NCBI GenBank assembly: GCA_963711565.1
Contig: CAVQEQ010000002.1
Coordinates: 1-64,000, forward strand
DNA from: an uncultured delta proteobacterium
Lineage (GTDB): Bacteria > Desulfobacterota > Binatia > Binatales > Binataceae
Direction of reading: 5' to 3'
DNA: 64,000 bases
The notes beneath the pieces were generated by a model. The model was given only the letters and a program-made list of their open reading frames with translations, ran no database searches and was not told the origin of the DNA. Of this stretch, positions 4,540 through 33,495 are shown piece by piece. The position numbers were made by a program, and so were the translations under genes. Within the stretch, counting starts at the first letter, position 1. Every line of letters begins with the position of its first letter.

Positions 4540-4553
4540 ACGGAAGGCCTCCT

Positions 4554-4895: not shown

Positions 4896-4904
4896 GGATG
4901 TGCG

Positions 4905-10024: not shown

Positions 10025-10031
10025 GACTAGT

Positions 10032-12204: not shown

Positions 12205-12250
12205 GTGGCGCGATCCTTCTCCAAAATGGCCGCGCCCTTCCGGCTTGGCT

Positions 12251-15200: not shown

Positions 15201-17464
15201 CAAGGAACCGAAATGAACGTCGTCCAAAATGGATCACCACCCCCCCGGAAGATCGGCCATGCGGCTATATCAGGGGAGCGGTTGGGGTCAAGTAAGCCAG
15301 CCAGTGGACATCTCTGACGCAGGCCCGCAGTCAAGAGCTTTTGAGCATTAAACATCCACGCGAGCCTAGCCGGATGTAGGGGAGACAAAAGCATCGCGAT
15401 TGGTTCGCCCCCAGCGGTTGGAGCTCCCGCGGCTGGGTTCGGCTCAGCCTCGAGAATCGCCACACAGTCGAACCACATTGCCGCGGAAGGCTCCGCTCGT
15501 AACCACTCCAAATACGCTCGTAGGTAAGCTTCCGCGCTGCTGGTCAATTCGTCGCGAGAGATTACCTGTTCGACGAGCTTAGTGCGTTCGGTATCGAGTA
15601 TGCGACGAACTTCCTCTCTAGCCGTCCGAACCGCTTCCGGTACTTCGCTGTTTCGAAATCTCGGATCAAATTGCGGTACGAACTGGCCCAGACGCGGATC
15701 CGACCAGTTCAGATCGGCAACGCGCATGACGCTTAGGTCTCCTGCGACGAGGATGGGATGCCAGCTTTCGGAGTTTGATAGGAGCGCAGTTTCGAGCCCG
15801 CGGATCATCCTTTCATGCGGAATCACTGGACTTGGACGTCCTCTCCCCCGCTGGTGGGCAACAACCAATGCTTCGAAGTATGTGCCAGGCGCCTCTCCGA
15901 CGTTTTCTTGAACAGTGACGAGGACTTCGCTCTTGCCGACTTCAACCCCGCCAGCGTCTAGAAATATGAACGTCAACTGGCTTTCCTCTTCAACCGTCAG
16001 AGTTAGGAGCGAAATACCATCTACAACAGGGGATTCTGCCTCTGCCGAGTCCGAGCAGCGGACGACGCTAGTGGCTGGTCCTGAATAGACGTAAACTCGA
16101 TGAGTCCCTGTCGATTCGAGCTCGATCTCCTGAGCCCAATTCGATCCGCTTCTCTCAGGAACAGTTATTCGAGCGGCATTCGGGGATGAAACGAGACCGG
16201 GCGCTTCTAACTGCGCAAGAGATACGAGATCGATTCGGCTGCTCCTAGCACCGCTGTCCTCCGCCTGATACCGCAGCGGGCGATCGTGCGCTGGAGGGTT
16301 AGGATCCGTAAATGAGGTTGGGCTCGCAGACGGAGCGGGCGCCATAAGCTCAACAAGGCGCCTTCGCCCAACGCGCCGGGAGATCGAGAGTCCTTGAAAC
16401 GCCGGAGCGCCTTCGCAAGTGATCTCTAGATCCGCTGCGTCCCGAACGACGACCGGCTCACCCCGCGCCGACGTGTTGAGGTTAATCCGGTTACTGCAGG
16501 TGAGTCTTATCCGGGCCTGAGGTGCGCGCGCGCCGACCTCGTCTAGGAGTTGTCCTAGCCGAGCTTCATCCAAGGTCGACCACCAATCGGGACGAGAACT
16601 CGCCTCTGACGGGCGAAATGCCAGCGTGCGGAGCCTGTTGAATCCACCACCGGACCCGGCGGATTGCTGAAGGTGATTGCGCAATGCCTCCAACGCTGGC
16701 GTCACCTGAGCGCCCGTGGCCGTCGCCTTCAATTCCTCGAACCCCCCTTCGAGCCCACGCTCCTCTAAATACTCGGCCAACTCTACGACGGCCTGATATG
16801 CAGATTGAGGGCTCGAACCGACAGAGCCGGGAGACGGTAAACCGCACGAACGGTATACGGCAACAACCGGAGGTTCACTGAGCGGGAAACCGTTAGTCAA
16901 GTAGCTCAACGCGTCCCAGGGGGCTCCCGAGCGCTTGTCTGTATCCAGACCTTGCGCATCGTGCCAGATGCAATGCAGCGCTTCGAAGATCAAGTTCTCC
17001 GAGATATTAATTCTGGATGCTATCCGCAAGCATAGGCTGTGCATCAGGCGATTCGGAGATTTGGCGCGGCCTTCGAACGCGATCGGTGTCGAGAGCGTAT
17101 CGGTCGCCGTCCGAATCGATTCCGGCCGATCCCACATCTCGGGCTCTACGAGTATAAGTGAGCGCTCGTAGCTGTTACGTGCATTGACTGCGTAGTCCCA
17201 AGTACATGCGCAGCTTCCCAATTGGCCACTCTGAATCCTGGGACTATTCGATATGAGCAAAACTGGAACAGTCAGCGTATCTCCGCCGGCACCGATCAGC
17301 CAATCTGTCGTTCCATCTTTTGTCAGGCGTGCGAACAGCGATTGGAGCGACTTCGCCGACGGACCGCAGACGACGGGCTGAAGCCGGGCGTTCCCGTCCA
17401 CCTGTCGCAGTCGGAGTACGTATTCCTCCAGTTCTTCTTCCAACAGTTCCGCGAGCGAGGTCAT
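12251..17464 (-). CDS. 1737-aa DptH/DndH-like protein with PD-(D/E)xK motif and C-terminal RuvB-like AAA+ module
   Basis: LSPLHP motif, RGDILA...PIEIK, then FIGN, GNPSTGKT, FVDEVH, FATTR, PRIA, EPHL, TPKGRELT. Confidence 0.75.
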   Translation of the reverse strand: MTSLAELLEEELEEYVLRLRQVDGNARLQPVVCGPSAKSLQSLFARLTKDGTTDWLIGAGGDTLTVPVLLISNSPRIQSGQLGSCACTWDYAVNARNSYERSLILVEPEMWDRPESIRTATDTLSTPIAFEGRAKSPNRLMHSLCLRIASRINISENLIFEALHCIWHDAQGLDTDKRSGAPWDALSYLTNGFPLSEPPVVAVYRSCGLPSPGSVGSSPQSAYQAVVELAEYLEERGLEGGFEELKATATGAQVTPALEALRNHLQQSAGSGGGFNRLRTLAFRPSEASSRPDWWSTLDEARLGQLLDEVGARAPQARIRLTCSNRINLNTSARGEPVVVRDAADLEITCEGAPAFQGLSISRRVGRRRLVELMAPAPSASPTSFTDPNPPAHDRPLRYQAEDSGARSSRIDLVSLAQLEAPGLVSSPNAARITVPERSGSNWAQEIELESTGTHRVYVYSGPATSVVRCSDSAEAESPVVDGISLLTLTVEEESQLTFIFLDAGGVEVGKSEVLVTVQENVGEAPGTYFEALVVAHQRGRGRPSPVIPHERMIRGLETALLSNSESWHPILVAGDLSVMRVADLNWSDPRLGQFVPQFDPRFRNSEVPEAVRTAREEVRRILDTERTKLVEQVISRDELTSSAEAYLRAYLEWLRAEPSAAMWFDCVAILEAEPNPAAGAPTAGGEPIAMLLSPLHPARLAWMFNAQKLLTAGLRQRCPLAGLLDPNRSPDIAAWPIFRGGGDPFWTTFISVPCEDPYWSLLWNSRMIERLRSSSAASLLRTFGVGARGFEGGFTSAQAKRTLQDVSNMLPARSVLRLGVVGEQEGQSTCSEGIVSWSQDVFSVDTPPSWPRELHVFDGRRPEDQPGNEELANLAEDSDGRVLWYDRYEQQLPANLDAIILDQLGIREPRLSAAELRSPASEGCLIGSRIRTDRDSATWIRETRIHSVERSGEGLTGLGSACVAEIEELASSKNGEALVEFAPNHVAVGNRLDQAGLVVVSSAEIDPACFARNAPVHGSYLWDYELPFADGISEQRVGYYKLAKPSSAVRRTVEAATRLLSANPPPVDEVLGEVSRRGIPILKRLASGGTHARGEIGVLLGARLLQDVFGTQRHECRLPVATANTLAVLVPVDPFTSLFRKVRQSLLGDDAELMRGDILAICVHIGEGSGQISIYITPIEIKFRESVAGETNLNDWLKQASSFGGFLRKLWAATPPTGLWNVCAKGLLAHVLNYGIRVYADEQVTGRTSDEWAKRHESILAAVYSGAAEIIVNEEGRLLAFDTSPSSRRLDLDNDGLDETLVVCRADAKALLERTSPSVEVDQGIESWQLCGSAEAARSQQDGGGQKTSAQAVGIEPLTAPAHSALLPQLVSVKGGAAQPGEVPTHEEEVEAGLPQPTTSHSAIPVEVRERVNRAFDGFIGNRPAVDSLKRDLLRALIERPPHLPKNYLFVGNPSTGKTELARRVASALALPFIKVDGRTVTSREKLFELIDAELQQANSRPTKEGTQYGKARLIYPPLIVFVDEVHLVARAVQESFLTVLESRDRTVVLDDRVAVLGQATHLFATTRSSELDAAFRSRCTEVYLHPYTEAEVAQMLAGAFAAWPPEVLSKIARYGRSVPRIAIELAKELETEALVSEFQDRSVDDHLEEVRRTRGIDENGLAHLDVNYLELLERSGPLGEQRLLSMLGSVDRDRILTEVEPHLVQRLSLVQMTPKGRELTNSGRKYLARTRNIAH

Positions 17465-19002
17465 CGGCGCGCCTGCTCCCTAGGCGAATTGAATGGATCG
17501 ACTAACACTCGTCCACCGTAGGCATCAGGGCTATCAATTGTCAGCCCGAGTGCAGCAAGGTTACCTATCAGCCGGCCCGATTCTAACTCTTCCGACGCAA
17601 TGCGGATCCCGTATGCGGCCAAGTGTTTCCGCAGGTCGTCTATCGTGGAGGGCACACCGGGTCTTGCAGAACACACGCAGTGGACGATTACCAGCAACAT
17701 GTTAGGACCAGGCTGCAGGAGCCAGATCCGTTGTCTGGGTGATGTCAACGGCGCCAAATAGGCTTGATCATACGAACGCTGTGCCTGATCGAGCGGCGCA
17801 ACTTGACGTGTTACGTAGCGCAAAAATTCCCTGATGTTCTTCGGAGGCCCCTTTTTTCCTGCCGCAGCGCGAGAATTCCTGTCAACCAATTTCTCGCATC
17901 GTTCTTGCAGCCAAGCCTTAGGGCTAGGGGCTACTTTAAACCGCTCGCGGCGTAGGTGCTGGAGGAAATTTACGATTTGAGCTGCACAGCTGCTCGAATC
18001 AGACGACCCGAGCGGCGTAGGCCAACCTACGTTGGCATCGTCCAGCCTGTGCAGCATTAAGTTGAGTCCCAGTCGTGCGCGCACATACCCTTCGAGCGTT
18101 ATGCTAAACGCGCGCTCCGTGTCTCGACCCACCTCCAGAAAAGCTCCGGAGCCGTGATGCGATTCGAATAATATCGCTTCTACCTCAGATTCGGTTGGGA
18201 TACTTCCGTCTCCAAGTGCGTCAAGACTCAAAGACCAGCAGTTCGCGTTAAGGCGGCACAGCCATAGCACTTGAGCGACCGCGGCTAATCTAAGTTCCGC
18301 TTCCAAAACTGCCACCCACTGCTCCCGACTCAATGTGCGCTTTAATCTCAGGACCTGCGGAAGATCGTCTACGAATCGTTCCGCTGGCGCGAAAGGCTCT
18401 TTCCGAATTTCTCGGTGAGCCACGTGCTTCCACTCGCCAAAAGCTGGTGGTCGCGGCCTCTCATTCTTTGGCGGAGGGACCGCAGCCAAGGCTTCCTGCA
18501 AGAACCTCGCGAATACGTCGTCCTCTGACCCAACGTCTAGGGCCTGTGCGAACTCCGGAAGAAGGGCCTCGTACCCGGCCCGGCCTGCACCGGAAGCGAT
18601 ACACGCCAGAATAAAATTACCTGGCGTCCAACGGCCACGCCGGGCACCTAGTACGCCTCCGTGTGCCGCGAGAAACGGCACGGTCGGTGAGAGATTCGGA
18701 AATCGGCTTCTCGGCAGGGCAGGACTGCGGATACAACCGGCATCTCCAAAAAGCCTATCCCAAAGCAAAAGAGGGGCACCGAGAACGTTCTTGCTGGTCA
18801 ACTGGTTCGGCAACTGAGGGATCAGTTCTAAGTCCACCGTCCGATCAGTGTTGGCGCCGGCAAGACCCAGCACGCGGCAAGTAGAGGCGAGCATAACCTC
18901 GCCTGTCGTCCATTCCGGCGCCGCTGGAAACTCGAGAGCAGACTTTTGATAAGACAAATGGTCTTGTTGGAAGGGATGTGACTCGAACTCGGTAACGCTC
19001 AT
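17461..19002 (-). CDS. DptG/DndG-like protein
   Basis: Size and position between DptF-like and DptH-like genes; wHTH-like C-terminus LAAYGI...LGLTIDSPDA. Confidence 0.6.
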   Translation of the reverse strand: MSVTEFESHPFQQDHLSYQKSALEFPAAPEWTTGEVMLASTCRVLGLAGANTDRTVDLELIPQLPNQLTSKNVLGAPLLLWDRLFGDAGCIRSPALPRSRFPNLSPTVPFLAAHGGVLGARRGRWTPGNFILACIASGAGRAGYEALLPEFAQALDVGSEDDVFARFLQEALAAVPPPKNERPRPPAFGEWKHVAHREIRKEPFAPAERFVDDLPQVLRLKRTLSREQWVAVLEAELRLAAVAQVLWLCRLNANCWSLSLDALGDGSIPTESEVEAILFESHHGSGAFLEVGRDTERAFSITLEGYVRARLGLNLMLHRLDDANVGWPTPLGSSDSSSCAAQIVNFLQHLRRERFKVAPSPKAWLQERCEKLVDRNSRAAAGKKGPPKNIREFLRYVTRQVAPLDQAQRSYDQAYLAPLTSPRQRIWLLQPGPNMLLVIVHCVCSARPGVPSTIDDLRKHLAAYGIRIASEELESGRLIGNLAALGLTIDSPDAYGGRVLVDPFNSPREQARR

Positions 19003-19013
19003 AGTCGCTTCCC

Positions 19014-21113
19014 CTAGGCCTCCCGACGGAACTCGAGCTCACCGTTGTAATCGAGCACTAACCTGCCGATCTCTTGTCCGGACTCCCTAAACTCAACCCA
19101 TACCTGACCATCTGCGAGCCTTTCCTTGTCGCGCGATAGGCCAGCCGCGTAACCGTGACGAAGCCGCTCTAGCATCGCTGCCACCCCAGAGGGGAGACTC
19201 CCGTTGGCACAGCCATCTGACCTCCGTCGCAGCGCGACGTACAACTCGAATGTAAGCGGCAGAACGCTATCGCCTACTTCAATACAAGGCATGTCATAAG
19301 CAGGGCGCCCAGGCTTAATGCCCGGTGCTGGCCGCGGACGAATCCCGCTCCTCGGTCCTACAATGATGACGCTTTGCGTCATTCGAGTTTCAGCCTGTCC
19401 AAACGACGAGACCAACGAGCCAGCAAATTGATTGCCTCCCAAAAGATTGGCTACAAGCTGAGCTATTCTTGATAGCCTGCTTTGGTCTCGTAAACTTTCC
19501 TCGTACTCACTTAACAGTCCTTCGTTTGCATGCCTTCCAGCGCTCACCCCGATAATTCGCTTCACCACTGCCGAACTTAAGCGGCGCAAAAATTCGATTG
19601 CAGTTACTGCACTCTGCTTTTCTCGCCCCAAGACGTCCCATTCTTCCTCCGCGCACGCCAGCATCTGGATGAAGCTCTGGCCGAGCTCCGACAATTGCTC
19701 CTTGAATTCATCAAGCCCTTGTCAACATCCCTGCCCAAACTCGTTCTCGATTCGCTTGAGTAAGTCGTTTTCCGAATCACCGCACCACCGAGCCGGGTCG
19801 ATCCACAATCGGTGAACTCCGCGAAGCAAGATCCGAATATGCTTCGAGCTATCTGGTTCGGTGCGCCGGATAGTGTCGCAAACAGCTCGTGTCACCGTCG
19901 CTCCGGCGTTAGATGCTTCCGATCTAACCACGCGCAATTCCTCTTCGGCCGCTAACGTTTGGAACAAACGTTGCGAATACAGGCCACGAGCCAACGGGAT
20001 GATTGCGGTTGCGCGCTGAGCATTATTCGCGGCGTTGCGGTACCGCGACACGAGGTCGTGGACCCACGAACATGGATCCGGATAGGAATCGAAATCTGAC
20101 CACTGTCCGACGATCAGTTCTGCCGTTAGAGAAAACGCATCACGGAAGGACCATCGTTGCCCGGTGGCTAGCTCGCCGCGTCTGAGAATGCGGAAGAGCG
20201 CATCTGAAACCGCCTCGTCGCGAAGCGATTCGGCGTTCTCGCGCATCGGGCACAGCCGTCTCGAGTCGCAATCGTTGCATCGTCCATCCACCTCCCACTC
20301 TTCGACTGCCGTGGCACTCAGGACTATCTCGCTTATGGGCATCCTGCCATCACCGCGCGCCGTCAGGCTCTCAACGTCCAAAGGCCAGCACGTGAAACGC
20401 GGATCGGCAGCCAATGGCCAACACGTTGGTTGGTTTTCCGACAATGCTTCTAAGCCGAGAGCGGTAGCTCGAATGATCTGGTCCAACGCCTCGACAACCG
20501 GACTTCCAGGATATTCGTTGTGCGCCCTTGCTAACGCTCGGGCGAGCAGGCCGCGGTTCGCGCAGCACACGAAGACAGGCAGTTCGCGCTCTGACGAAGT
20601 GACCAAGTCTGCCACGTCCTCTACTAGCAAGTCGGCCGCGTCGGCGATGGCGTTATCGCTGGCCGAAGCGTCCTGAATCAGGGTTAGTCTTCGGATCGTC
20701 AGGCCGAATCGACTCCCGGAAACACCAACATCTCCGCCCGTTATGTTAACCCGTCTCGGCAGCAGCTTCCCGACCCCGAATCTCTGCCGGACGGCTGCAA
20801 CCAACGCGCCGCCGGAATCTAGATTCAAATCGAGCCTCTCCACGAAATCTTGAACCGCCTCCGACTTGCCGTTGCCGGGTCCGCCGATGAGGAAGATCCA
20901 ACGTGGGGCGGTCTCGTCGCCCCCGGCGATGCGAGAAGCTAAATCCCGGAGCCTCACGATGAGCCCAGTTAGAACCAGCGAGCCGATCGGGTTCCCCCAT
21001 CTCGCAAACGGCACACGGACACCGCCACGATCGTGTCCGTGCCAGCCCAGAAGATCTGCTACCCATTCGTTTTTGTTAGCTGGCACGAGCGCGTACCTCG
21101 TCCGATCCGGCAA
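19014..21113 (-). pseudogene. DptF/DndF-like P-loop NTPase interrupted by one in-frame TGA (19722-19724)
   Basis: GGPGNGKS, QDAS, CANRGLL, CxxCx5CP; the 463-aa and 226-aa ORFs share a frame and are joined by GC*QGLDEFKEQL. Confidence 0.72.
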
Positions 21114-22413
21114 CCATCTCGCTCCAAGTTTCCATCAGCACGTATCCCATTACTTCCGCGACAAACGGTGGCATTGCGTTCCCCACCTGGGTGTAGCGCG
21201 GACACTCTCGTTTCCGGCGCATTCCGCCAGTCGTGTATTTTCCCATGAACCCATACCAATCGGGGAAGGACTGCAGCCGCGCGTATTCGCGGACCGTCAG
21301 TATCCGTGGTTCAGAATAATGCAGAAAATCATCTGGCAACGTGGTGAGAGTATGGGAGGGTTTGTCCGGATCAAGGGGCACGATACAGTGCTTTCGAATC
21401 CCCAGACGATCACGGTCAGCCTGCGAAAGGCCAACGCCCTTCTTGCACGTCTTCAGGATTTTCGCGAAGTGGTCGATGGTATCAAGCTTGTGCCTGGGTA
21501 GTCTTAGGCTATTGGGAGCTTTCCCGCCTAACCCGGCGTGTAGCAGCCTCTGGTACGGAGTTTTCGGCCCCTCGTAATCGATCTGATTGAATCTGGGAAA
21601 ATCGTCGCATTCGACAAAATTCTTACCGGTAACCTCCAGGTCAGAGATTGCCTCCCGAGCCGTAACTGCCCTATCGATCGGCAGATCCTTCGATCTCAAG
21701 AACTCAATTCGCTTCGCCGAAACCAGCTGAAAAGGATTCTCCGGTTTGAAATTCGATCCGCGCGTGTCAACGGCGATCACAAACTGCCGTGGGCGCAACT
21801 GGGCGACTCCAAAATCAGAGGCGCTGAGGCATTCATCAAATACTTCGTAGCCCAACTCCTCCAAGCTATCGCGTAATCGCGCCAAAAACGGCCGCGCCGG
21901 TCTCCCGACCTGCGTCCGCCGCTCTTTACGTTTCGTTTTGCCGAATTCTGTAGCGATTCCCTTCACGTTCTCGAAAAGCACTAGTCGCGGCCTGATGGCG
22001 TCTACCATCTCAATGTATTGCTCGAACATGCGGTTCCGCGGATCATCTCGTCGGCGGCGCCCCGCATATGAAAAACCCTGACATGGCGGCCCCCCCGCCA
22101 CGAGGTCGATCTCTCCCCTCAGCTCGCCTAACTGCGAAGAATACTTTTTGAGGAAAGTACTGAGTCGGCAGGATTCCTTCGGAAGCCAGGATGGCCACTG
22201 AAACCGAAATCCGCCAGCGCGATCTATCAAGTTGGATTTGAGTGTCTCGAAGGCGTTCTCTTCTCTTTCAACCGCCAACACTCCTTGCCATCCGGCGGCC
22301 ATGAGTCCCAGCGAGAGACCCCCGCACCCGGCAAACAAGTCGATGAAGGTGGGTCCGTCCGCGATCTCATACCGCGAAACGCGAGCCCTTTCCTGCCCCA
22401 TGTTCCGTTTCAT
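21076..22413 (-). CDS. DNA (cytosine-5)-methyltransferase
   Basis: Motifs DLFAGCGG, GGPPCQGFS, ENVKG, QLRPR, TVREYARLQSFPD, QVGNA; exact start uncertain (22401-22434). Confidence 0.95.
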   Translation of the reverse strand: MKRNMGQERARVSRYEIADGPTFIDLFAGCGGLSLGLMAAGWQGVLAVEREENAFETLKSNLIDRAGGFRFQWPSWLPKESCRLSTFLKKYSSQLGELRGEIDLVAGGPPCQGFSYAGRRRRDDPRNRMFEQYIEMVDAIRPRLVLFENVKGIATEFGKTKRKERRTQVGRPARPFLARLRDSLEELGYEVFDECLSASDFGVAQLRPRQFVIAVDTRGSNFKPENPFQLVSAKRIEFLRSKDLPIDRAVTAREAISDLEVTGKNFVECDDFPRFNQIDYEGPKTPYQRLLHAGLGGKAPNSLRLPRHKLDTIDHFAKILKTCKKGVGLSQADRDRLGIRKHCIVPLDPDKPSHTLTTLPDDFLHYSEPRILTVREYARLQSFPDWYGFMGKYTTGGMRRKRECPRYTQVGNAMPPFVAEVMGYVLMETWSEMVAGSDEVRARAS

Positions 22414-22511
22414 GTCTACGAGTTCTTCACTCAAGATCTGCTCTTCCCCGACAAGCCGACGGCGAGGGACCGACCCGAATCAGGTCGGGGCGCCGAACTC
22501 GCGTGCACTCT

Positions 22512-22982
22512 CTACTGCCGGCCAGCGGCCCTCTCGAACTCGGCGTCGAGTCCTGTCACTTCGTCTGGGTGGATTCTCTTTTTTCGCGCAGCCAAACCCC
22601 GGCTTCCCTCCGACACCAATTCGACCATCACGAACTGCCCCTTACATGGACCCATCACTTCGAGCGCGTGTTTCCTTTCCTCGTTAACGTGGAGGACACG
22701 TCCTTTCTTGCGATCCAGAACAACAAAGAGGCCCCGACTAAGAGGATTGAATCCCATTGCTCGCAGGTCCTCGATCAGATGGCGCGAACGCTGCAGCGAA
22801 AGTCCGCCCCTCTTCAATCGCACCAAATTCTCGAGCTCGGCTATTTCCCGTTCTTCCAGTCGAACTGCAGCGCCCGACTTGCCCGTCCTGCCACGCACAT
22901 CCACGAGTCCCCGCTCAACCCACCCGGCGAGCGTCGAATAAGGGACCTTCTGTTCCCTTGCCAGTTGTTTGAGGGTCGCCAC
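22512..22982 (-). CDS. MerR-like HTH protein, possible operon regulator
   Basis: TLKQLAREQKVPYSTLAGWVERGLV...LKRGGLSLQ. Confidence 0.6.
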   Translation of the reverse strand: MATLKQLAREQKVPYSTLAGWVERGLVDVRGRTGKSGAAVRLEEREIAELENLVRLKRGGLSLQRSRHLIEDLRAMGFNPLSRGLFVVLDRKKGRVLHVNEERKHALEVMGPCKGQFVMVELVSEGSRGLAARKKRIHPDEVTGLDAEFERAAGRQ

Positions 22983-23332
22983 GGCATCATGAACTTTGGA
23001 ACTTGTTCAAGGTATCTTAGGTGTTGAGAGTCTGAAACGCCAGTAATCTTAGGAAGCGAACGGCTCGTCCCGCAGCCGCTTTCAGACCCTAAATGCCGGA
23101 TCTTCCCGACACTGACAGAGATTCCTTGGGGCCTTCGCGAGTCGCCCTGGAGCCTCTGCAAACCGCAGATTCCATTGACACGGCGCCTTCGCTGTGAGCC
23201 GCCCCGCGAGCGCTCCGTAAACTTCGCGTCGCGGCCCCACGCCGCACCCCAACTCCGCCCGCGATCTCCGCTTCGCCGCCGCTCTCATTGGTGGCGTTCG
23301 CTGCGCTAGCAATCCGCGCCAGCCCTCCGGGC

Positions 23333-23512
23333 CGCTTTCGCTCTGTCACGTCCTGCCGCCCGCTCCGCTCGCGCATCTAGAAATCTGCGCACGGCCCTCC
23401 TGTTCGAGGTGTAAGGGCCGCGCGGAAAAAAAGTGGCGCGGTGATGAAAGCAAAGCGCAGCACGCCCTGCCCGATGAACGGGAAGCGGGCGCAAACGAAC
23501 AAGGAGGTTCGT
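23333..23512 (+). promoter_or_regulatory. Nested inverted-repeat leader upstream of ssb, with RBS in a hairpin loop
   Basis: Imperfect arms 23333-23349/23441-23457; inner arms 23389-23398/23414-23423; ACGAAC-AAGGAG-GTTCGT at 23495-23512. Confidence 0.5.
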
Positions 23513-23516
23513 AGTC

Positions 23517-23891
23517 ATGTCAGTTAACAAGGTGATCGTGATCGGCAATCTGGGAGCTAACCCCGACATTCGTGCTCTGCCGTCCGGGCAAAACGTGGCG
23601 AATTTCTCGTTGGCGACCACGGAGCGGTTTACGGACCGCAACGGTGCGAAACAGGAGCGCACCGATTGGCATCGGATCGTTGCATTCGGGCGGCTGGCCG
23701 ATACGTGCGAGCGGTTCCTGAGCAAAGGCCGTCAGGTTTACGTCGAAGGACGGCTTACTACCCGCCAGTACGAAGCCAAGGACGGCAGCGGCAGACGCTA
23801 CCGGACTGAAATCGTGGCGCGGCAACTCCGCCTGCTCGGCAAGCGCGCTGACGCGCCCAAGGCTGAAGCATCCGACGACATCCCGTTTTAG
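23517..23891 (+). CDS. ssb: Single-stranded DNA-binding protein
   Basis: SVNKVIVIGNLGANP, TDWHRIV, KGRQVYVEGRL, DDIPF tail. Confidence 0.96.
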   Translation: MSVNKVIVIGNLGANPDIRALPSGQNVANFSLATTERFTDRNGAKQERTDWHRIVAFGRLADTCERFLSKGRQVYVEGRLTTRQYEAKDGSGRRYRTEIVARQLRLLGKRADAPKAEASDDIPF

Positions 23892-23966
23892 TTCCCCACC
23901 ACGCGACGGGAGAGCCGCGCAAGCGGTTCTCCTCAACCATCCAAACCACAATCGGAGATCACGAAA

Positions 23967-24839
23967 ATGGACGTTTATCAAATCATAACCGACAAGATCA
24001 TCAATCTGCTTGAAAGCGGCGTCGTACCTTGGCGCAGGCCGTGGACCTCAACCGGACTGCCGCGCAACCTTGTCAGCAAGAAGCCATATCGCGGCGTCAA
24101 CGTTTTTCTGCTTTCGGCCTCGAAGCACGTTTCACCGTTTTGGCTGACCTACCGCCAGGCGAATGAACTTGGCGGACACGTCCGCAAAGGCGAGGAGAGC
24201 ACGATCGTCGTTTTCTGGAAGGTCGAAGATTTGAAGCACAGTACCGAAAACCTCGACAACGAACAGACCGAGGAGAAGACGCGCCGGCGGTTCCTGCTCC
24301 GCTACTATAGGGTTTGGAATCTGGAGCAATGCGAGTTTCCGCAAGCCGTGCTCGACAAGCTGCCGAAGATCGAAACGCACGAGCATGATCCAATCGAAGC
24401 GGCCGAGCGAATCATCGCCGGAATGCCAAACCCCTCAGAGATTCAACATACGGGCTCAAAGGCATTCTACAGCCCAATCACTGATCGAATCACCTTGCCA
24501 CCGCGCGAGCTCTTCGCGAGCGTTGAGGAATACTACGCAACGGCTCTGCACGAGACCGTTCATAGTTCAGGAAGTCCGAAACGCCTTGCGCGAGAAGGGA
24601 TATGCGAATCCTCGCCCTTTGGCTCCCCGGTATATTCCAAAGAAGAGATGATCGCGGAAATGGGAGCCGCTTACCTTTGCGCCGAGGCCGGAATCTCAAA
24701 TGCAGTCATTGAGAATCAGGCGGCTTATGTCGCCGGCTGGCTCAGGAAGCTTCGCGAAAATCGTAGGCTCTTGATCAATGCCGCCGCTCAAGCGCAGCAA
24801 GCGGCGGATTATATCCTCCGCAGACTCCGCCTCTCGTGA
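23967..24839 (+). CDS. ardC: ArdC-family ssDNA-binding antirestriction protein
   Basis: VPWRRPW, YRGVN, WLTYRQA, VRKGE, LHETVH, EEMIAEMG, AAYVAGW. Confidence 0.9.
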   Translation: MDVYQIITDKIINLLESGVVPWRRPWTSTGLPRNLVSKKPYRGVNVFLLSASKHVSPFWLTYRQANELGGHVRKGEESTIVVFWKVEDLKHSTENLDNEQTEEKTRRRFLLRYYRVWNLEQCEFPQAVLDKLPKIETHEHDPIEAAERIIAGMPNPSEIQHTGSKAFYSPITDRITLPPRELFASVEEYYATALHETVHSSGSPKRLAREGICESSPFGSPVYSKEEMIAEMGAAYLCAEAGISNAVIENQAAYVAGWLRKLRENRRLLINAAAQAQQAADYILRRLRLS

Positions 24840-24845
24840 TATTCG

Positions 24846-24872
24846 CGGCGCCCGCGCATCGCGCGGGCGCCG
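24846..24872. terminator. 12-bp perfect hairpin after ardC
   Basis: CGGCGCCCGCGC-ATC-GCGCGGGCGCCG between convergent genes; no clear U-tract. Confidence 0.55.
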
Positions 24873-25048
24873 CCGACGAAATTAGTCTCCTTGATCCCTT
24901 AGGAAAAACGGCCGGTCGCCGGCCCAGAAACGGACGCACCGCTCGTATCCGAAACGGATCATTCCAGAACACGCTGAAAAACTGGCATGAATCTAAAATG
25001 TCCACCAGTCTCGTTCTTCCCGTAATATTCGTTCTTGAAGACCGGAAT

Positions 25049-26002
25049 TCACTGACTCGATATCCTCAGGTGAGCGCCGACATACCCAACGAGGATTCGT
25101 TTGGAGACCGGGAAATCGAAAAAGTGAATTCGCGTGTCTCCTCTCTTCAGATGCCATTCAAAGACCCGATACTCGCCATCTGGACATCGAAACCTTCTTT
25201 CATCGCTGTACATATTCAACGTGGATTGACTTTCGCCAGACGCGCTGGGCAGCCCATGAATGTCAAAATTGCCAGTGTCCCACGTTTCACAATAGCATTG
25301 CAGATCTTGGAGCCCCCGCATCACTGCTCTAAAACGTGGCTCGCTCCCTCCGAGAGCCTTTATCTGATTTTCGACTGGCTCACAAAAGTCGAGATTCGGG
25401 AAGAGAGATACTCTATCATCCCACAGTTCGAGCCCACTTGCGGGCGGAGCAGGTTTCTTGCGGTCCAACCATTCAACGTGCACTTCTAAATGAACCGCTC
25501 GGGAAGCGTGCCGCACGCTAAGGATCCGCGTCTCGAAGTCTTCGTTGTTGATCCAGAGCTTTTCAAGGCTTACCGAGTCAACGTTCCATTGGTCGCTAGA
25601 CCGGAAGCTGATCGCGAGGCCATCTATCGAAAAGGCCACTGACAATCCTTGTGCGGGCTGATCAGCACACCTATATTCCACATTCTGAGCGTCGAGTTGC
25701 TCGACCGGGACACAGTCGCTGTAGTCGCTGCGCTTATCGACGAGCGTTTTTATTCGCAAACGTTTTTCGTGGTCTCCGTGATGGTACTCGGCCAGCCAGC
25801 GACCGACAGAAAATCCGGAACTGATCTGCACCTGGGGAAAGTAAGGCGGAGTAACAAGAATCTTCTTTCCCTTGATTCGATGATCGGTGAGAATATTCGA
25901 GAATTCTTCGAGGTACCTTTTCCCACTATTCAAATCTGGCGCTATCGGAGTTGTAGACAATTCATTGAACACCAAGAATACGGTCATTCTAGTTACCGCC
26001 AA
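25049..26002 (-). CDS. Third gene of Menshen-like system (NsnC-like putative effector)
   Basis: Overlaps ATPase gene; C-terminal FEWHLK...RIHF...VGYVGAHL. Confidence 0.65.
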
Positions 26003-27104
26003 GCAGTTGATCTAAACTCCGTTCGATTTCATCGAAGAAGCCTTCGGGCCATTGAGACAGCCTGCCATTCTCGTCAATATTTAATAAGGTCAGGGAAGGT
26101 GAGCTTCCGCCTGCCTCCCATTTGCTGTGATAAAGCGCGACCTTTGACGGATCAACCTTTTGTCCTTGGACGGCTAGCCGAATTCCGTTCAGCACGTGAT
26201 CGCTGTGAGTCTCCAAGAGGATCTGAATGCCGGCCGCGGATGCCCGAGCCAGAAGGTCCCCCATCTTGAGCTGTCCACGGGGGTGAAGATGAGCTTCCGG
26301 ATTCTCAACGATAATTAGACTTCCAGAGTGGGCTGAGAGGACTGAGACAACAATCGGCAACGCGTATGTGATGCCGAAGCCGACATTGGTAGCGCGATAT
26401 TGTGAACTGGCAACCTGCTTCTGTCCCAGAGAATAAGCAACGCTGAATGTCATAAGGTCCATCTCGGAGTAGCGTTTCACGTTCAAGCGCACGCCCGGAC
26501 TTATTTCCGTCATCCATGCCTCCACTTGTGACTGGAGGGTGTTTGAAGTGGCAGTCGGATGGCGTAACCCTCGTAACTCGACGTTTTCCGAGCCAAAGAG
26601 GGAGAGGAAGTGCACTGCGAACTCGCCGCTTGAACCTAATTGGCGGTGATGTCGAACCTCGTAATCGGACATACCGAAAGATGTTCGAGGTCCAATGCGC
26701 TCGGCGCGGAGGTATTGAAATTCGTCCCGGAAGAGGCTCGTGTTCCAGATCTCTCCCGTGTGCTCATAACCATTGACGGCTAGCACATCACTCTCCTCAC
26801 GATAGGCGAATCGCAGCTTAAGATGTGCAGGGAGGTCGTCCTTTAGTTCGAACGCTATTTCGTCGGTATCAGCTTCTTCAAACAGCACGTCCTTGGCAGT
26901 TCCTAGCTCGGCTAGTTTGCCATTGAGTGTCAACCCGACATTTGGTAGCAGATTCTCAAGGTAAGATTGCCTCAACAAAATGAGGGCCTGGATGACGGTC
27001 AACTTTCCAGAACTATTTAGACCGGCGAGCAGAGTCAGCGGCTTAAGGACGACAACTTGTTGTTTGAAACATTTGAAATTGTCTAATTCGATCGACTGGA
27101 TCAT
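25989..27104 (-). CDS. ABC-type ATPase with DUF3696 (NsnB-like); Walker A reads GKLT
   Basis: [41 protein letters not shown]. Confidence 0.85.
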
Positions 27105-28624
27105 TGAAGTGTCTCCTGAATGATCTCCTCGATCTTTGAAAATCGCAGCCGCACTTTTCGAGGGTCACCCGTACCATATGTAATAGCCGACTCGAAATTA
27201 CTGTCGTCGAGCAACGAAAGAAAGCGTTCTCGCAGTTCGTTGCTCTTCTCTTGGAGTCTATCGACATCGGCTGGAGACAAGGTCTCAACATCTGCAGACC
27301 ACACTTCAAACAGAGCGCGATTGACGGGATAACGCCTTGGGTTTCCTCGTTTCTGCTTCCGGAAAGCTAGATCGCCGAAGAGCCGATAGCAATTCACCAT
27401 TGCCGTGCTAAACCGGTGGCGTAGCTTCTGGATCTCCCCATCTGAGGATTGGTTGAGTTCGATCATGCATTGGTTAAGAAAGGTATCGATATTCTTCGAT
27501 TTGTACTCCTGATATGGCGTTCTCATAAAAGCTAGAAGTCTCAGCACACACTCTCGGTCGCCCATGCGGTCGTCGCGAATTCCTTCGTTCGTGGCCGCGC
27601 GGAACTCCGCACTCTCCGCAAGGTCTTGCAAGAGAAGAGCAGCTTTCCCTTGATTAAGAGCGTGGCGGATCTCCTGGCTCGAAAGCGGCAACCCGCCTGT
27701 ATTGATTCTTTTGAAAATGTTGAACTTGACCTCAGGAGGTGTGTTCTCTTGGATCAGAAACACTGTTACTTGTGTTTCTAATATGCGTCTCTGAAGGCTC
27801 CGGGGTAATTGGTCGAACTTCTTTCCAACACATTCGTTCAGGAACTCGAGTCCGCTGAGCGACAAGGTCCTGTCGATCACAAAACTTCTAAGCGTTGAGA
27901 GACGTTGCAGTCCGTCAACGACGAGCCACTTGCTCTCATCACTCCCGTCCATGTAAAACGCGGGCAGCGGAATTCGGATCAGCAAAGATTCGATCAACTG
28001 ACTTTTTGCTTTTGTGCTCCAGATTCCACCTTTGCGCTGAAAGCCCGGAGTCAAATCGATTTCTTTGTTCCGAATGCGATCCATCAGAAGCGAGATCACC
28101 ATGGGCTTGGTATCAACTCGGATCCGCCCCGGATCGAACGGTTCTGTTATTTCGAAACCACCACCAGTGTCTTCTTCTTCGAGCCCCGTGCCGTCCACCT
28201 CCCCCAATTCCTCGCCCCCAGAATCGTCCGTAGAAGTAGTGGTGACTTCCGGAGATCGGTCCGGAGAACTTTCATGAAGAGCGCTATCCTCGATGGAAAT
28301 GTGTTCAATTGTCTGTGGCCCTTCTCCAGATGCCGCCTTTCCTACACTCGTTATCCCGGTACTCCACACAAACCGTGAGGGCCACCCTCGCCGGCCCTCA
28401 ACGAACTGCCCACACCCTTGATCTTGGAGTTTGCGAAAAAGATCTATAATTTCGCGTCAACGGAATTCATGACCTTCGGCTCTAAGGAGAACAAGGATGC
28501 GGTCGACTTTCGTTTCGGACTGATCGCGTTCGCGGCGCGCGGCATGTTCGAAAAAAACTTTGGCCACCCCACTCTCCATGTAGAGTTGCCGAAGCGTGTC
28601 TATATTTGGCGATTTGAAGTCCAT
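27101..28624 (-). pseudogene. DUF262/ParB-like protein (NsnA-like) with N-terminal domain, interrupted by in-frame TGA at 28457-28459
   Basis: PGFQR, LIESLL.RIP, VDGLQR, FKRINTGG; frame extends upstream to ATG 28624 with GGAGAAAGG RBS. Confidence 0.78.
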
Positions 28625-28934
28625 CCTTTCTCCACCCGAGCGTCATCGCAGACTGATTCAGAGAACTGCAAAGAAGAAATAGCGGTTGTAATCAATATAT
28701 CTGATCTGATTGGTGCCACCGCAAAGCTCGTCAGGATCAGCGTCCTTCTCCTGGCTGGCAATGCCCGGATTGCTAGTCCATGCTTTAAGTTAAAGTGAGC
28801 AATTTCATGGCGGATAGTCCGTCAACCGGCTGGAGTGTGAGAACGTTCCGGTGCTTCGCGGTTACCGTTGCCATTCAGGGCAATACTAAACCCGCACGCC
28901 GCGATCGGTTTTTCCAGGTAAAGGACGGATGACC

Positions 28935-29360
28935 TCATCTGGGAAGTTCTCGGTTTGCGTGCTCAGAGGGGCTCACGCTACCAAGAAGATCGATCAGGAA
29001 AGCGTGGATCGTCGTGATTCGGTTTCCTTTTCTGTTCGGATACGTATCGCCCACCGAATCCCCGTCCCTGTCGGTCACAAGCAATGCCGGAACTTCCGCA
29101 CCAAAAAAACAGGCGGAGCGTCGGTTGGTTCCGAGCATTCTCTTTACCTCATAGTGCCTGTAGACGGCGGGCAAGATCGCACGTGAGTAGCGCTCAATGC
29201 GCTCCTTCTCAGTCAAATTCGCGGTATCCACGAACTCGATATCATCGCCTCTCGCCTTAGCCTCTGCGAGCAGGCTGGGGACGTCCTCAATGCCAGCGTT
29301 TCGCTCGCCGTTGAATGGCTGACGTGTCGGGTCCGACGACGAAAAGTAGGTTAGCTTCAC
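28935..29360 (-). CDS. Hypothetical protein
   Basis: Globular-looking 141-aa ORF (FGAEVPALLV, YPNR); no family assigned. Confidence 0.6.
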   Translation of the reverse strand: MKLTYFSSSDPTRQPFNGERNAGIEDVPSLLAEAKARGDDIEFVDTANLTEKERIERYSRAILPAVYRHYEVKRMLGTNRRSACFFGAEVPALLVTDRDGDSVGDTYPNRKGNRITTIHAFLIDLLGSVSPSEHANRELPR

Positions 29361-29479
29361 TTTCGATACGTTAGCACAAGCTATACCCGGTGTACAGGGG
29401 GATAAATCCGAAGTTTAATATGAGGAAGGGGTCTGGCTCATATTAAATGGAGTGTTTATCATGGGACGGACAGTGAGCC

Positions 29480-30679
29480 ATGGTAAACGCAAGTGATCAC
29501 AACAATCGCACGACCAAATTCCCAGCTCGGGCGGGTCGCTATGTAACCCAACCCGCCGGCTACCGGGCTTTCATACCCGCCCCGCTGCCACCCACACCCC
29601 TTGTCCAGCTGGTCGGCGATCTTCAGCGCTCGCTCTCTGAGGCAGACCGTGCTTTGGGCCGCCTGGATGGCTCCGTACTGACCCTGCCGAATCCCGATCT
29701 CTTTGTTTTCATGTACGTCCGGAAGGAAGCGGTACTTTCGAGCCAGATCGAGGGCACCCAAAGTTCATTGCAAGATCTGCTCGCGGCCGAGGCTCACATC
29801 CTCGGTGAGAGCCTTCCCCGCGATGTGGACGAAGTCGTCAACTATGTCCGGGCAATGAATCACGGCCTCGCGCGCTTAGCGGAGCTTCCCGTTTCCGTCC
29901 GCCTGATCCGTGAGATTCATACCGAATTACTGAGGGGCGTTCGCGGGTTGACGCTGACGCCAGGTGAGCTACGGCGTAGTCAGAACTGGATCGGTCCCGG
30001 AGGATGCACATTGGCCGAGGCCACATTCGTACCCCCGCCACCCGCTGAGGTGCCGATCAGTCTGGGCGCGCTCGAAACGTTCCTTCACGACCGGGACGAC
30101 ATCCCGTTGCTGATCAAGATCGGGCTTGCTCACGCCCAATTCGAGACGATTCACCCCTTCCTCGACGGCAATGGCCGTGTGGGCCGCCTACTAATCACTT
30201 TCTTGCTATGCGAGCGGGCCGCGCTACACAAACCCGTGCTGTACCTATCGCACTTCCTCAAGCGCCACCGGCAAGCCTATTACGATCATCTTCAGGCGGT
30301 CCGCGACAATGGTAATTGGGAGGGCTGGCTGAATTTTTTCTTGCGCGGAGTCGCGGAGGTTAGTGTTCAGGCGGCCGAGACGGCGCGCAAGATCCTCGAG
30401 TTGCGCGAAGCACATCGCAGGAACATCACTGACCATCTAGGCCGGGCCGCCGGCAACGGTCATCGGGTACTTGAGCGGCTTTACGAGAGGCCAATCATGA
30501 GCGTCAGCGACGTGCGCAAGCTGCTCGGAACCACCTTTGCGGGCGCCAATCAGATCGTGCAGCGCCTCGTTGATCTCAAAATACTCGCGGAGATCACAGG
30601 GCAGGCTCGCAATCGCCGCTTCCGTTACGACGCCTACGTGCGTCTCTTCGACGAGGAAGCGGACGCACGTAACGCTTGA
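29480..30679 (+). CDS. Fic-family protein (Fic_N + Fic + C-terminal wHTH)
   Basis: EAVLSSQIEGT, HPFLDGNGRVGR. Confidence 0.93.
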   Translation: MVNASDHNNRTTKFPARAGRYVTQPAGYRAFIPAPLPPTPLVQLVGDLQRSLSEADRALGRLDGSVLTLPNPDLFVFMYVRKEAVLSSQIEGTQSSLQDLLAAEAHILGESLPRDVDEVVNYVRAMNHGLARLAELPVSVRLIREIHTELLRGVRGLTLTPGELRRSQNWIGPGGCTLAEATFVPPPPAEVPISLGALETFLHDRDDIPLLIKIGLAHAQFETIHPFLDGNGRVGRLLITFLLCERAALHKPVLYLSHFLKRHRQAYYDHLQAVRDNGNWEGWLNFFLRGVAEVSVQAAETARKILELREAHRRNITDHLGRAAGNGHRVLERLYERPIMSVSDVRKLLGTTFAGANQIVQRLVDLKILAEITGQARNRRFRYDAYVRLFDEEADARNA

Positions 30680-30918
30680 AGGTCTCCTTGCCCGCGAGGA
30701 GTTAGTTGCGAGGATCGTTGGGCAGATGCCGGTCGCAAAATCGCGGATTCCTGATTTCGTTCCTGAAGTGCTGTCCCTATTGTCATGTGTTCGAACTATC
30801 AGGCATCGAAGCATTGCCCGCCGTTCAGTGGCACTTCGACAATCTTCGCGAGATCAACAGGAACAAGAGCGGCACGAGGTCCGCGCAACTGGAGAAGGCT
30901 CTTGCAAGACCCCGCTAA
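30669..30918 (+). pseudogene. Remnant resembling the C-terminus of an AbiEii-type nucleotidyltransferase
   Basis: Two frames give VTLEGLLAREELVARIVGQMP and RGFLISF...LPAVQW; no start or N-terminus. Confidence 0.45.
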
Positions 30919-31007
30919 AAAACCACCTGCGAGAGTGCGAACAAGCGCTCAGGCCGCGTCGATTCTCCGCGCACCGTGCCCTTTGTCTCGTATTCTTTTC
31001 TAACAAA

Positions 31008-31874
31008 CTAAACGCTGGCGAGAGCTCGAATTCCTTGCGACATGCACCTAACGGGTGCGCGTTGACCTAGTGGCTCGCGCTGACTTCGAACGCTCTCCGC
31101 CCAGTCTATCAAGTAATCAGCCATACGACCGAGGTGAGACTCCAACCCCTGGGGAATAGGGTAAGGATCGGACTGGTCAAACGTTCGCAGAGGCGGCAAA
31201 TCTGCTTCGCAAAAGAAGGCTCGGAATGCCTCGCTGTGGAAAGGCTGATCCTTAAGAGTATCGCACCAAAGGTCTTTCTCGTTGACATTTAATTCGAGCT
31301 TCTTGTTGTAATACTCCATGAGGCTTCGAGCGACTCGGCCGTTCCCATCGGGAAGCGGATGGATTAGTAAGAAGGACATGTAGACGAAGGCCAGAAATTC
31401 TTCGGCTTTGCCGGAACGCCTATCTTTTGCGAGTTCATCTGTGGCGCGGTAGAAGTAGGGCAAGACGATTTCGTCAAGATAACCAGGTAGTGAATAGTGC
31501 TCTTCAAACGGATGGATGAAGTTAGCAGGTTTGAAAAGTACGCCGGCAAAACCTAGGTTGTCGGCAGGCAATAAAAGTCGAAGCAGCCTCAGATTTCTTG
31601 CCTCGGCTGCGTCGCGCGGATTCCCGACATCCGCTCCAAGACGGTTCGCTACGGGTAACCGCAAGTAGTGATCGATTCTATGTAGTCGGTGAAATAGAGG
31701 AACCAAAAGAGCCACTGGTAAGAGTGCGACATGCCTAAACAACTGGTCGAACACTCTATGGACGGACGGATGCTGCCTTAGGTTATCTTTTTGAGCTGAT
31801 CGTTTTTTCATAAACGGCCGTTGACGGACAGATAGCCCTACTAACTTCGTTGTCCCATTTCTGAGCTGAAACAT
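31008..31874 (-). CDS. Divergent Fic/Doc-domain protein
   Basis: IHPLPDGNGRVARS; start may be ATG 31811. Confidence 0.75.
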   Translation of the reverse strand: MFQLRNGTTKLVGLSVRQRPFMKKRSAQKDNLRQHPSVHRVFDQLFRHVALLPVALLVPLFHRLHRIDHYLRLPVANRLGADVGNPRDAAEARNLRLLRLLLPADNLGFAGVLFKPANFIHPFEEHYSLPGYLDEIVLPYFYRATDELAKDRRSGKAEEFLAFVYMSFLLIHPLPDGNGRVARSLMEYYNKKLELNVNEKDLWCDTLKDQPFHSEAFRAFFCEADLPPLRTFDQSDPYPIPQGLESHLGRMADYLIDWAESVRSQREPLGQRAPVRCMSQGIRALASV

Positions 31875-31877
31875 TCA

Positions 31878-33353
31878 TCAGTCGCTCGACGGTACATGAA
31901 GCCGCCGCGGTTTGATCCCGACTGGGGCACTGCGGGGAACGACGGCAAGGTCGCGAAGCTTGCTTGCCTCGGAGTTCGCGAACTCGCGCGAGTGCATAAG
32001 TTGCATGCGCTGAAAAGCCTCATGGTCTCCTGCTGAAGGTTGCTTGTGCCACCTACGAACCACGCCTACGATCTCGTCAAGTAGCGCTGCCACCCGAGCG
32101 TCGGTCGCTATTCTTTGGAAAAAATCTCTCGAGCTGCGCGCCTGGTCTTTCAAGTAAGCATGTAGACCGCGCATCAGGAATACGCCGGCGTTGTGATCCT
32201 CAACCTCATCGGCGAACTTAGGCGGCAGCCCTCGGGCATTACCGTTCCCCACCAGCATTCGTGCGGTTCTCGGAAAGTTCAGAGCTGCATATAGGAAGGA
32301 TCGCAACGCATCTTCGTTCTGGCCGAGTTCGAAGAAAGCGAAAGCCGCTGTAAAGCCTGCGTGTGGCTCTTCAAAGAACCCGGCAGCGGATTGGCCGGCC
32401 AGCAACTTCTGCGAAGCGTCAGCGGCCTCTTCCCACCTTAGCGTGTTGAGGTAGACGTTCGCACGGTATCTGGTCGCGGTCCACTCGTCAGCGCACTCGT
32501 CCGCCAGGCGATCGCAGATAACGAGCGCGTCCTCGAAGTTGCCTGCGATGTTCAGCGCGATCGCGAGGTTGCGCAGCCCGCGCATGAAGGGGCGCGTGGA
32601 AAGGTCGCTCCAGTATCGCTTTTTGGTGATGCGTGCGGGGAAGAGCCTGCGACCAAGCTCGACGGTTTTCTTGAAGTGCCGGATGGCCTCATCGACATTC
32701 CACCGCTGCAAGGCTATAAGCCCTAGATAGTTGTAACCTTCAGCGTATCGATCGAAGCAGTCGACGAGGAGCCGAAAGATCGGTTCGGCCTTTTCGTATT
32801 CTCCGCGCTCGTAAAATCCGGCAGCATGTTCCTCGGTATCTGATGGCACCTCGCCACCCCGGAGCGAGAACCTCCAATAAAAGGGATTGTCGGCGTTCCA
32901 CTGGCTCTCCTTCTGATCGCGTGACTTGAGGCGCCAGGTGATCAGATCGGCGAGGTACTCCAGTTCATAGCGGTGTTCCTGAATCAGGTGGGCCGCCGAA
33001 ATGAGGTCCTGCGGATCAGCAAGAATGAGCGAACGTGTGAACGCGCAGAGATCGTTACGGAATCGACTGCGAAGGCGTTCCGACCGATATTCGTAGAGGT
33101 CGGGCAAGGCATCGAGGTTCTGCTCGATGGCGCATCGAATCTCTTTCCAGTCGAACTTGATGTCCGGATACTGACGCTCCAATAGATGGCAAAACCAGTC
33201 GATGCGGCTTTTCTTCCGGCGTCCGAGAACTTCTAACGCCTCAGCTTTAGAGTACAGCGTGAATAAGATCCGTTGCTGGACCTTTCCTGTCCCCGGAGCT
33301 CTCTCTCCGTGAACGATCGCTAGCTGGTTCCCTCTGCGACGAACGTAAGCCAT
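31878..33353 (-). CDS. Tetratricopeptide-repeat protein
   Basis: YAEGYNYLGLIAL...EAIRHFKKTVEL, TRPFMRGLRNLA; start MAYVRRRG. Confidence 0.75.
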   Translation of the reverse strand: MAYVRRRGNQLAIVHGERAPGTGKVQQRILFTLYSKAEALEVLGRRKKSRIDWFCHLLERQYPDIKFDWKEIRCAIEQNLDALPDLYEYRSERLRSRFRNDLCAFTRSLILADPQDLISAAHLIQEHRYELEYLADLITWRLKSRDQKESQWNADNPFYWRFSLRGGEVPSDTEEHAAGFYERGEYEKAEPIFRLLVDCFDRYAEGYNYLGLIALQRWNVDEAIRHFKKTVELGRRLFPARITKKRYWSDLSTRPFMRGLRNLAIALNIAGNFEDALVICDRLADECADEWTATRYRANVYLNTLRWEEAADASQKLLAGQSAAGFFEEPHAGFTAAFAFFELGQNEDALRSFLYAALNFPRTARMLVGNGNARGLPPKFADEVEDHNAGVFLMRGLHAYLKDQARSSRDFFQRIATDARVAALLDEIVGVVRRWHKQPSAGDHEAFQRMQLMHSREFANSEASKLRDLAVVPRSAPVGIKPRRLHVPSSD

Positions 33354-33460
33354 TCTGTTGTGTTCAGCATGTATCACAACACAACAGTCCTGCACAACCC
33401 GATCCCAGGCGCAGATTTGAACCTCAAAAACCGTTACTTCCTGTGCACGCCACCTCCCCC

Positions 33461-33490
33461 TTGACAGTAACTACGGAACTTCCGTAGTCT
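33461..33490 (+). promoter_or_regulatory. Sigma70-type promoter with palindromic operator for the brnT operon
   Basis: TTGACA 33461-33466, TAGTCT 33485-33490, ACTACGGAA-C-TTCCGTAGT 33470-33488. Confidence 0.7.
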
Positions 33491-33495
33491 ATTTG

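Follow-up and report, generated by a model that had tools for sequence, protein, structure and literature searches.

Are defence genes of an uncultured soil bacterium broken by point mutations, or do the breaks belong only to its assembled sequence? The question is posed by positions 1–64,000 of contig CAVQEQ010000002.1, the whole of which we call the window, from the four-contig assembly GCA_963711565.1 (here G000) of an uncultured delta proteobacterium of the Binataceae. An initial annotation of the window described three substitutions, each breaking a gene on the minus strand and each repaired by a single T-to-C change that restores the hexamer GTCGAC, and offered two causes, real deamination of a methylated cytosine or methylation-induced miscalls of long reads. 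We find that the substitutions are almost certainly errors of the assembled sequence, an artefact, and that these errors probably arise from N6-methyladenine (6mA) at GTCGAC and at a second hexamer, GACGTC, misleading long-read basecalling.

The broken genes and their sequence in other contigs

The hexamers were checked in minus-strand coordinates; all three are present and gene-breaking, as the sequence, the read-through open reading frames (ORFs), and the homologues agree. TGT TGA CAA at 19721–19726 splits, by a stop at 19724, a P-loop gene of about 699 amino acids (aa; 19014–21113, minus strand), the second gene of a five-gene module. Reading through this stop gives a single ORF of 699 aa, and 116 of 120 listed homologues measure 650–749 aa; the three closest (98, 68, and 70% identical) have Arg at the stop codon, and farther homologues vary there, with Glu in 66 of the 120 listed. 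AAG TTG ACC at 26998–27003 turns GKST into GKLT in the Walker A motif of an ATPase with DUF3696 that resembles Menshen NsnB (25989–27104, minus strand). GKS, not GKL, is found in three of three plasmid homologues, and the comparison rests on these and on run X7 described below. CGT TGA CGC at 28456–28461 places TGA at codon 56 of a DUF262 gene resembling Menshen NsnA (27101–28624, minus strand), which reads through to a 507-aa protein having Arg at 28459 in 120 of 120 listed homologues. The DUF262 gene and the ATPase are part of a predicted Menshen-like operon, in which three adjacent genes fit the NsnA, NsnB, and NsnC profiles (E = 3e-139, 6e-117, and 3e-71). The N-terminal extension of the NsnA-like protein, about 95 aa long, is conserved; it and an acidic linker occur in the 120 listed homologues and fall outside the PADLOC profile match.

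The 699-aa protein had been called DptF-like, a name that the profiles do not bear out: no Dnd/Dpt profile matches the module, SspF matches weakly (1e-5), and the atlas places the gene in its DptF cluster at 0.89 only, which we regard as a lead. The large gene of the module, for a 1737-aa protein, ends in AAA+ and RuvB_C domains rather than in the HerA/FtsK domain of DndH/DptH.

Part of the window is held by 15 public runs, of which X1 holds 0.61 of its words. Contigs of X1, X2, and X7 were compared with window positions 19601–39600 at a likeness threshold of 98%; runs X3, X4, X6, and X8–X15, with shares below 0.1 each, were left out, and a comparison at 90% likeness was dropped after differences in the ArdC region swamped it. 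All contigs compared are at least 99% alike to the window, with depths of 2.5–4.1, and X2 and X7 are different samples according to their records. Their pieces of 151 bases look like short-read data, a library type that we infer and that is not on record. Their loose ends resemble what we take to be a transposase adapter.

Twelve positions differ between the contigs and the window, and nine of these restore GTCGAC or GACGTC, five as single changes and four as two double changes. All nine are A>G or T>C; a random change of this kind within 19601–39600 makes one of the two words at 53 of 8926 positions (about 0.6%). GTCGAC is restored at 19724, 20747, 20748, 27001, 27917, and 29949, and GACGTC at 35540 singly and at 25759 and 25764 jointly. 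By run, six of six differences restore a motif in X1 (44 contigs), one of one in X7, and three of six in X2, with the change at 27917 common to X1 and X2; the remaining three (20593, 31484, and 37355) are seen in X2 only and restore neither word.

The shared GTCGAC context proposed for the three broken genes is thereby borne out at two of them. The assembly reads GTCAAC at all three sites on the plus strand; X1 has GTCGAC at 19721–19726 (19724 A>G) and X7 has it at 26998–27003 (27001 A>G). At 28456–28461 the miscall is deduced from the Arg of the homologues in place of read evidence; 24 of 82 contig pieces were listed, so that a missing row at 28459 carries no information. Altogether, the GTCGAC sites in 19601–39600 comprise five shown to be miscalled, one so deduced, and three intact. 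Nine GTTGAC or GTCAAC sites inside the listed contig pieces are unchanged, hence such words are not always errors.

The other sites show the same kinds of change. GTTAAC stands for GTCGAC at 20745–20750, a double miscall (X1, 20747 T>C and 20748 A>G) that gives Asn123 where a 98% identical homologue has Asp. A second double miscall, AACGTT for GACGTC, lies at 25759–25764 in the NsnC-like gene (X2, 25759 A>G and 25764 T>C), and a synonymous one, GTCAAC for GTCGAC, at 27914–27919 (X1 and X2, 27917 A>G). In a Fic-family gene (29480–30679, plus strand; PADLOC SoFic profile), GTTGAC at 29947–29952 gives Leu for Ser, and X1 has GTCGAC (29949 T>C), which upholds one of the weaker candidates of the initial annotation. 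AACGTC at 35540–35545 in an SNF2 helicase gene gives Asn for Asp, and X1 has GACGTC (35540 A>G). Two further candidates had been named. GTTGAC at 39512–39517 is a candidate only, having no differing row at a place where cover is not shown. GTTGAC at 41209–41214 (GTC AAC on the coding strand), outside the compared region, is a likely miscall judged by its protein motif, which has Asp in five of six occurrences in the genome and Asn only here. The sites at 20745 and 27914 had escaped the initial annotation, as had the second motif and the scale of the effect in the genome.

Two hexamers across the genome

GTCGAC is the most under-represented of the 4096 hexamers in the genome (observed/expected 0.24), and GACGTC is the fifth most depleted (0.56). 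The relative G017 provides orthologues for comparison (562 kb aligned of 800 kb, 85% identity). Its 150 coding GTCGAC sites correspond in G000 to 20 unchanged sites, to inner transitions of which 20 are synonymous and 16 non-synonymous, and to 94 changes of other kinds, as against 34 non-synonymous and 110 synonymous transitions among 4866 control nTCGAn sites (p = 4e-13); at GACGTC there are 15 non-synonymous G>A changes to 62 unchanged sites (p = 3e-12). Non-synonymous G>A is enriched at GTCGAC (p = 4e-21) and at GACGTC (with the p value just given) and is low at 24 other hexamers tested, being only 0–0.04 in CTCGAC, ATCGAC, TTCGAC, GACGTG, GACGCC, and other near contexts. The strongest local context of the error is C-G-A-C in both words. 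Changes that are blind to protein function indicate error, not evolution.

A broader motif (TCGA, GTMKAC, CTCGAG, or CGACG) was considered and rejected, since GTAGAC, CTCGAG, and the remaining nTCGAn words show neither asymmetry nor a surplus of non-synonymous changes; GTAGAC is depleted, yet its sample in this test is small (46). CAGCTG (0.42), GTAGAC/GTCTAC (0.53), and AAGCTT (0.59) are also depleted, and none of the tests run gives a miscall signature for them.

A second signal comes from the counts of 2016 pairs of hexamer and reverse complement on the plus strand of the contigs. AACGTC exceeds GACGTT (2222 vs 1585) more strongly than any other pair, GTCAAC against GTTGAC (1705 vs 1296) ranks third, and the second and several later pairs overlap look-alikes of the two words. 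Each of the four contigs shows the GTCAAC excess, as do bins of positive and of negative GC skew, and its ratio of 1.32 compares with 0.90–1.12 in 46 relatives; the AACGTC asymmetry is found weakly in two relatives, G007 (1.15) and G006 (1.12). Since contig orientation is arbitrary, a plus-strand bias is the signature of a consensus step. From the excess alone, at least 409 GTCGAC and 637 GACGTC sites are miscalled (39% and 37% of the true sites). Candidate premature stops in the GTTGAC context lie on the minus strand in 14 of 15 cases, compared with 846 of 1697 others (p = 5e-4), as the plus-strand bias predicts.

The depletion of GTCGAC has a further component. Val-Asp is often written GTC GAT or GTG GAC in the genome, and in the relatives G003, G007, and G018 the depletion exceeds that of G000 and comes without asymmetry, which points to a real long-term avoidance in part; depletion as an artefact alone was rejected on these grounds. 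Across the genus, GTCGAC density ranges 18-fold (31–565 per Mb) without orientation bias, and G003 and G007 have no XamI match.

Candidate methylases and rival explanations

We propose that 6mA in GTCGAC and GACGTC would make a long-read, probably nanopore, basecaller read the preceding G as A. Reads of the marked strand would then give A and those of the other strand G, and a consensus step that picks A more often than T for the mirror C/T mixture could yield more GTCAAC than GTTGAC; failure on both strands would give GTTAAC or AACGTT. The orientation bias of the assembly supports such strand-split mixtures indirectly. The four contigs and the error spectrum suggest that the assembly is a native nanopore product, and G-to-A is the main motif-linked error reported for R10 reads (10.64898/2026.01.14.699587).

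At least 12 candidate DNA methylase loci are found in the genome, three of them cytosine-C5 (C5) enzymes, one of which is split. A XamI-family endonuclease (PF09572, E = 7e-112, whole profile, no internal stop) lies on contig C3 at about 1099681–1102289. Directly downstream is an open frame for a 526-aa NPPY methylase with Eco57I/N6_Mtase matches. The endonuclease occurs in 7 of 47 genomes of the genus, and the pair recurs in six of six other carriers; these six are without exception among the GTCGAC-poorer half of the genus (median density 173 against 378 per Mb, p = 0.015, the kin not being independent), an indirect sign of specificity for this word. GTCGAC is the target of M.SalI, a gamma methylase (PMC3874165), and the product of M.AatII is G-m6A-CGTC (PMC3287169). 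With enzymes of the SalI and AatII types marking A, the misread G is the base just before the marked adenine in both words. The writer at GTCGAC would be the gamma-class adenine methylase of this XamI/SalI-family type II system, and adenine methylation by the C3 system is, with good probability, the cause of the GTCGAC errors.

At GACGTC, an AatII-like adenine methylase is proposed. The beta-class DPPY methylase at C1:499700 is a weakly supported candidate, its carriers G007 and G006 ranking second and third in asymmetry (z 3.7 and 2.9). Homologue names, plasmid matches, and NCBIfam gave nothing specific for a GACGTC writer; the methylase at C1:1238109 has a 90% orthologue in G006 and none in G007, and that at C1:913095 has no close match in five genomes searched. 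One candidate GACGTC methylase has a 61% homologue on small Klebsiella plasmids. The split C5 methylase (C1:1042830–1043983; L011:1489–2642) lies in two overlapping frames and adjoins a GIY-YIG nuclease.

The initial annotation had placed 5-methylcytosine (5mC) on the inner C of GTCGAC and made the methylase of the island its writer, as in M.HgiDII. This C5 enzyme (452 aa, 21076–22434, minus strand; PF00145, E = 5e-49) is intact; a search of 24 relatives gave only matches of 34–44% in four of them and a contig-level scan of genomes gave none, and the asymmetry is seen in G000 alone. Cytosine methylases for GTCGAC do exist (PMC5867850), and 5mC at C3 would suit that word equally, C3>T and G4>A being one event seen from two strands. 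Set against this, an intact XamI-family endonuclease needs its sites protected and has its own methylase adjoining; the island enzyme shares only 27% identity with HVO_C0040, an HgiDII-like proxy that is itself a putative GTCGAC enzyme; and in GACGTC the misread G stands two bases from the inner C with the same C-G-A-C error, so that the adenine reading explains both words. We therefore regard this explanation as unlikely, and the island methylase is probably not the GTCGAC writer. Its closest relatives are on plasmids (45–48%), and the one opened sits in the same module. That module ends in a T:G repair-type gene, so the enzyme probably marks some cytosine. There is a slim chance that one of the two marks, and then rather the one at GACGTC, is its product; the miscalls would in that case reveal a first target site of the five-gene module, itself uncharacterised.

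Less probable still is a weakness of the basecaller or polisher for certain sequence contexts, methylation not being involved. The G-to-A bias persists in amplified DNA (10.64898/2026.01.14.699587), and the error here depends on flanks, being strongest with C before G; against it, near-identical words stay at their low rates, only two full palindromes are affected, and few-contig relatives with 1700–2700 GTCGAC sites show no asymmetry. Real mutations fixed by methylcytosine deamination, with island genes decaying, find support in C>T being the expected product in a methylatable palindrome and in the true avoidance of GTCGAC in the lineage. They are made very improbable by contigs at least 99% alike that carry the intact words, including those at 19724, 27001, and 29949, by non-synonymous changes nearly matching synonymous ones in core genes, and by a bias that tracks orientation in all four contigs whatever the GC skew; the double changes GTTAAC and AACGTT also revert in the contigs. 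The intact words and the dependence on an arbitrary orientation lead us to reject this half of the original proposal and to favour its other half, methylation-linked long-read miscalls. The runs could, lastly, hold sister strains whose differences are ordinary variation, as the three X2 differences that restore neither motif, and the origin of X2 and X7 from different samples, might suggest. This is the most remote of the possibilities: all six X1 differences fall in the two motifs, where chance would place about 0.6% of such changes, and strain variation cannot make an orientation bias.

Several points weigh against 6mA at the two words as the cause. The methylation, as well as the platforms of the assembly and of the runs, is deduced. 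The XamI site, which we take to be GTCGAC, and its marked base, presumably A5, are assigned by family specificity. G002 (30 contigs, platform not on record) has the XamI pair without asymmetry; the C1:499700 carriers G049, G053, and G002 likewise lack asymmetry, and the 75% group is not GACGTC-poor. Contig depth is 2.5–4.1, less than the depth of 5 under which a difference seen in a single contig may be an error; two runs back the change at 27917 only, and 28459 has no differing row, with read cover there not shown. When read-through stops are roughly counted across the genome by context, a check in which the initial annotation expected GTTGAC to be enriched, this word has 6 of 446 and is not among the top contexts, although the count is noisy, Arg CGA after xGT being rare (10 intact cases). 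What a modification is and where it sits cannot be read from mismatch patterns (PMC11610603), and 5mC at C3 thus keeps its share of probability.

The island, its meaning, and known systems

The module at 11437–22434 (minus strand) comprises the C5 methylase, the 699-aa P-loop protein, a 513-aa protein, the 1737-aa protein, and an HhH-GPD glycosylase. The order is the same in three of three metagenome loci, and a Sinorhizobium plasmid has a like series of genes with Vsr in last place. Neither PADLOC nor NCBIfam gives the module a system name, the only leads being to DptF/SspF and MAD7, and the available portions of PMC10853773 and PMC12839542 hold no description of it; from its gene content it is possibly an uncharacterised methylation-coupled defence system. 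Nearby are an operon like the cyclic-oligonucleotide-based antiphage signalling system (CBASS) at 7307–10808 (TRIP13 ATPase, two HORMA proteins, cyclase, and NucC-like nuclease) and, at 33683–40470, a DrmD-like SNF2 helicase followed by a sacsin/TmtA-like ATPase. The ORFs 37221–40136 and 39805–40470 overlap in a way that suggests a frameshift, and this too may be an error of the assembly. Genes for conjugation (TrbE, TrbL), for an ArdC-like protein, and for a tyrosine integrase (1310–5993, 23967–24839, and 43760–44962) suggest that the island is an integrative element.

The gene breaks are almost certainly not a feature of the organism; they probably go back to a type II system of an ordinary sort, and the error is of a known kind rather than new biology. 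The defence genes are most likely intact and best treated so, including the Menshen-like operon and the five-gene module, which look dead in the assembly. At least about 1050 sites of the genome are miscalled, which creates spurious stops and spurious Asp>Asn or Ser>Leu changes and amounts to a quality warning. The plus-strand comparison of hexamers with their reverse complements found both motifs without reads and is cheap; its validation is on G000 alone. The reading also predicts part of the methylome of an uncultured soil bacterium, GTCG-6mA-C and G-6mA-CGTC.

Searches of the literature for GTCGAC together with nanopore, methylation, and errors found no miscall paper, supplements, which may list motifs, being outside the search; they also yielded no paper on XamI. 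Among enzymes, the likeness to SalI/XamI (PF09572; PMC3874165) lies in a XamI-family endonuclease upstream of a gamma-class NPPY methylase and in the affected word GTCGAC; the G000 copy differs in lying on contig C3, outside the window, with predicted activity and specificity. The 5mC GTCGAC methylases of the M.HgiDII type (PMC5867850; PMC6329791) share with the island enzyme the C5 class, and the HgiDII word is GTCGAC.

Lohde et al. (10.1101/2023.09.15.556300) described methylation-caused ambiguities of the purine (R) and pyrimidine (Y) kind in assemblies of bacteria from nanopore reads. As here, their errors are A/G and C/T ambiguities in reverse-complement motif pairs that are absent from Illumina data, and their unexplained RACG/CGTY pattern fits the two GACGTC error positions, a putative resemblance drawn by us. 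Unlike theirs, our case rests on an assembly and low-depth contigs. Further parallels are a G-to-A bias of R10 data that methylation amplifies (10.64898/2026.01.14.699587) and the strand-specific detection of mismatches (PMC11610603): G-to-A dominates near 6mA and N4-methylcytosine motifs and can exceed 50% of reads, resembling single-nucleotide polymorphisms; neither GTCGAC nor GACGTC is named in the available portions of these two papers, and in our case the consensus loses over a third of the true sites. Chiou et al. (PMC10687267), with Modpolish, dealt with thousands of motif-bound mismatches in methylase-bearing strains, recognisable against relatives, at the different motifs GCAGC and GCTGG in Listeria isolates. 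By the three features tested, namely purine/purine or pyrimidine/pyrimidine swaps, fixed motifs, and absence from run contigs that are short-read by inference and of low depth, the present case works like these methylation-associated long-read consensus errors and belongs with them.

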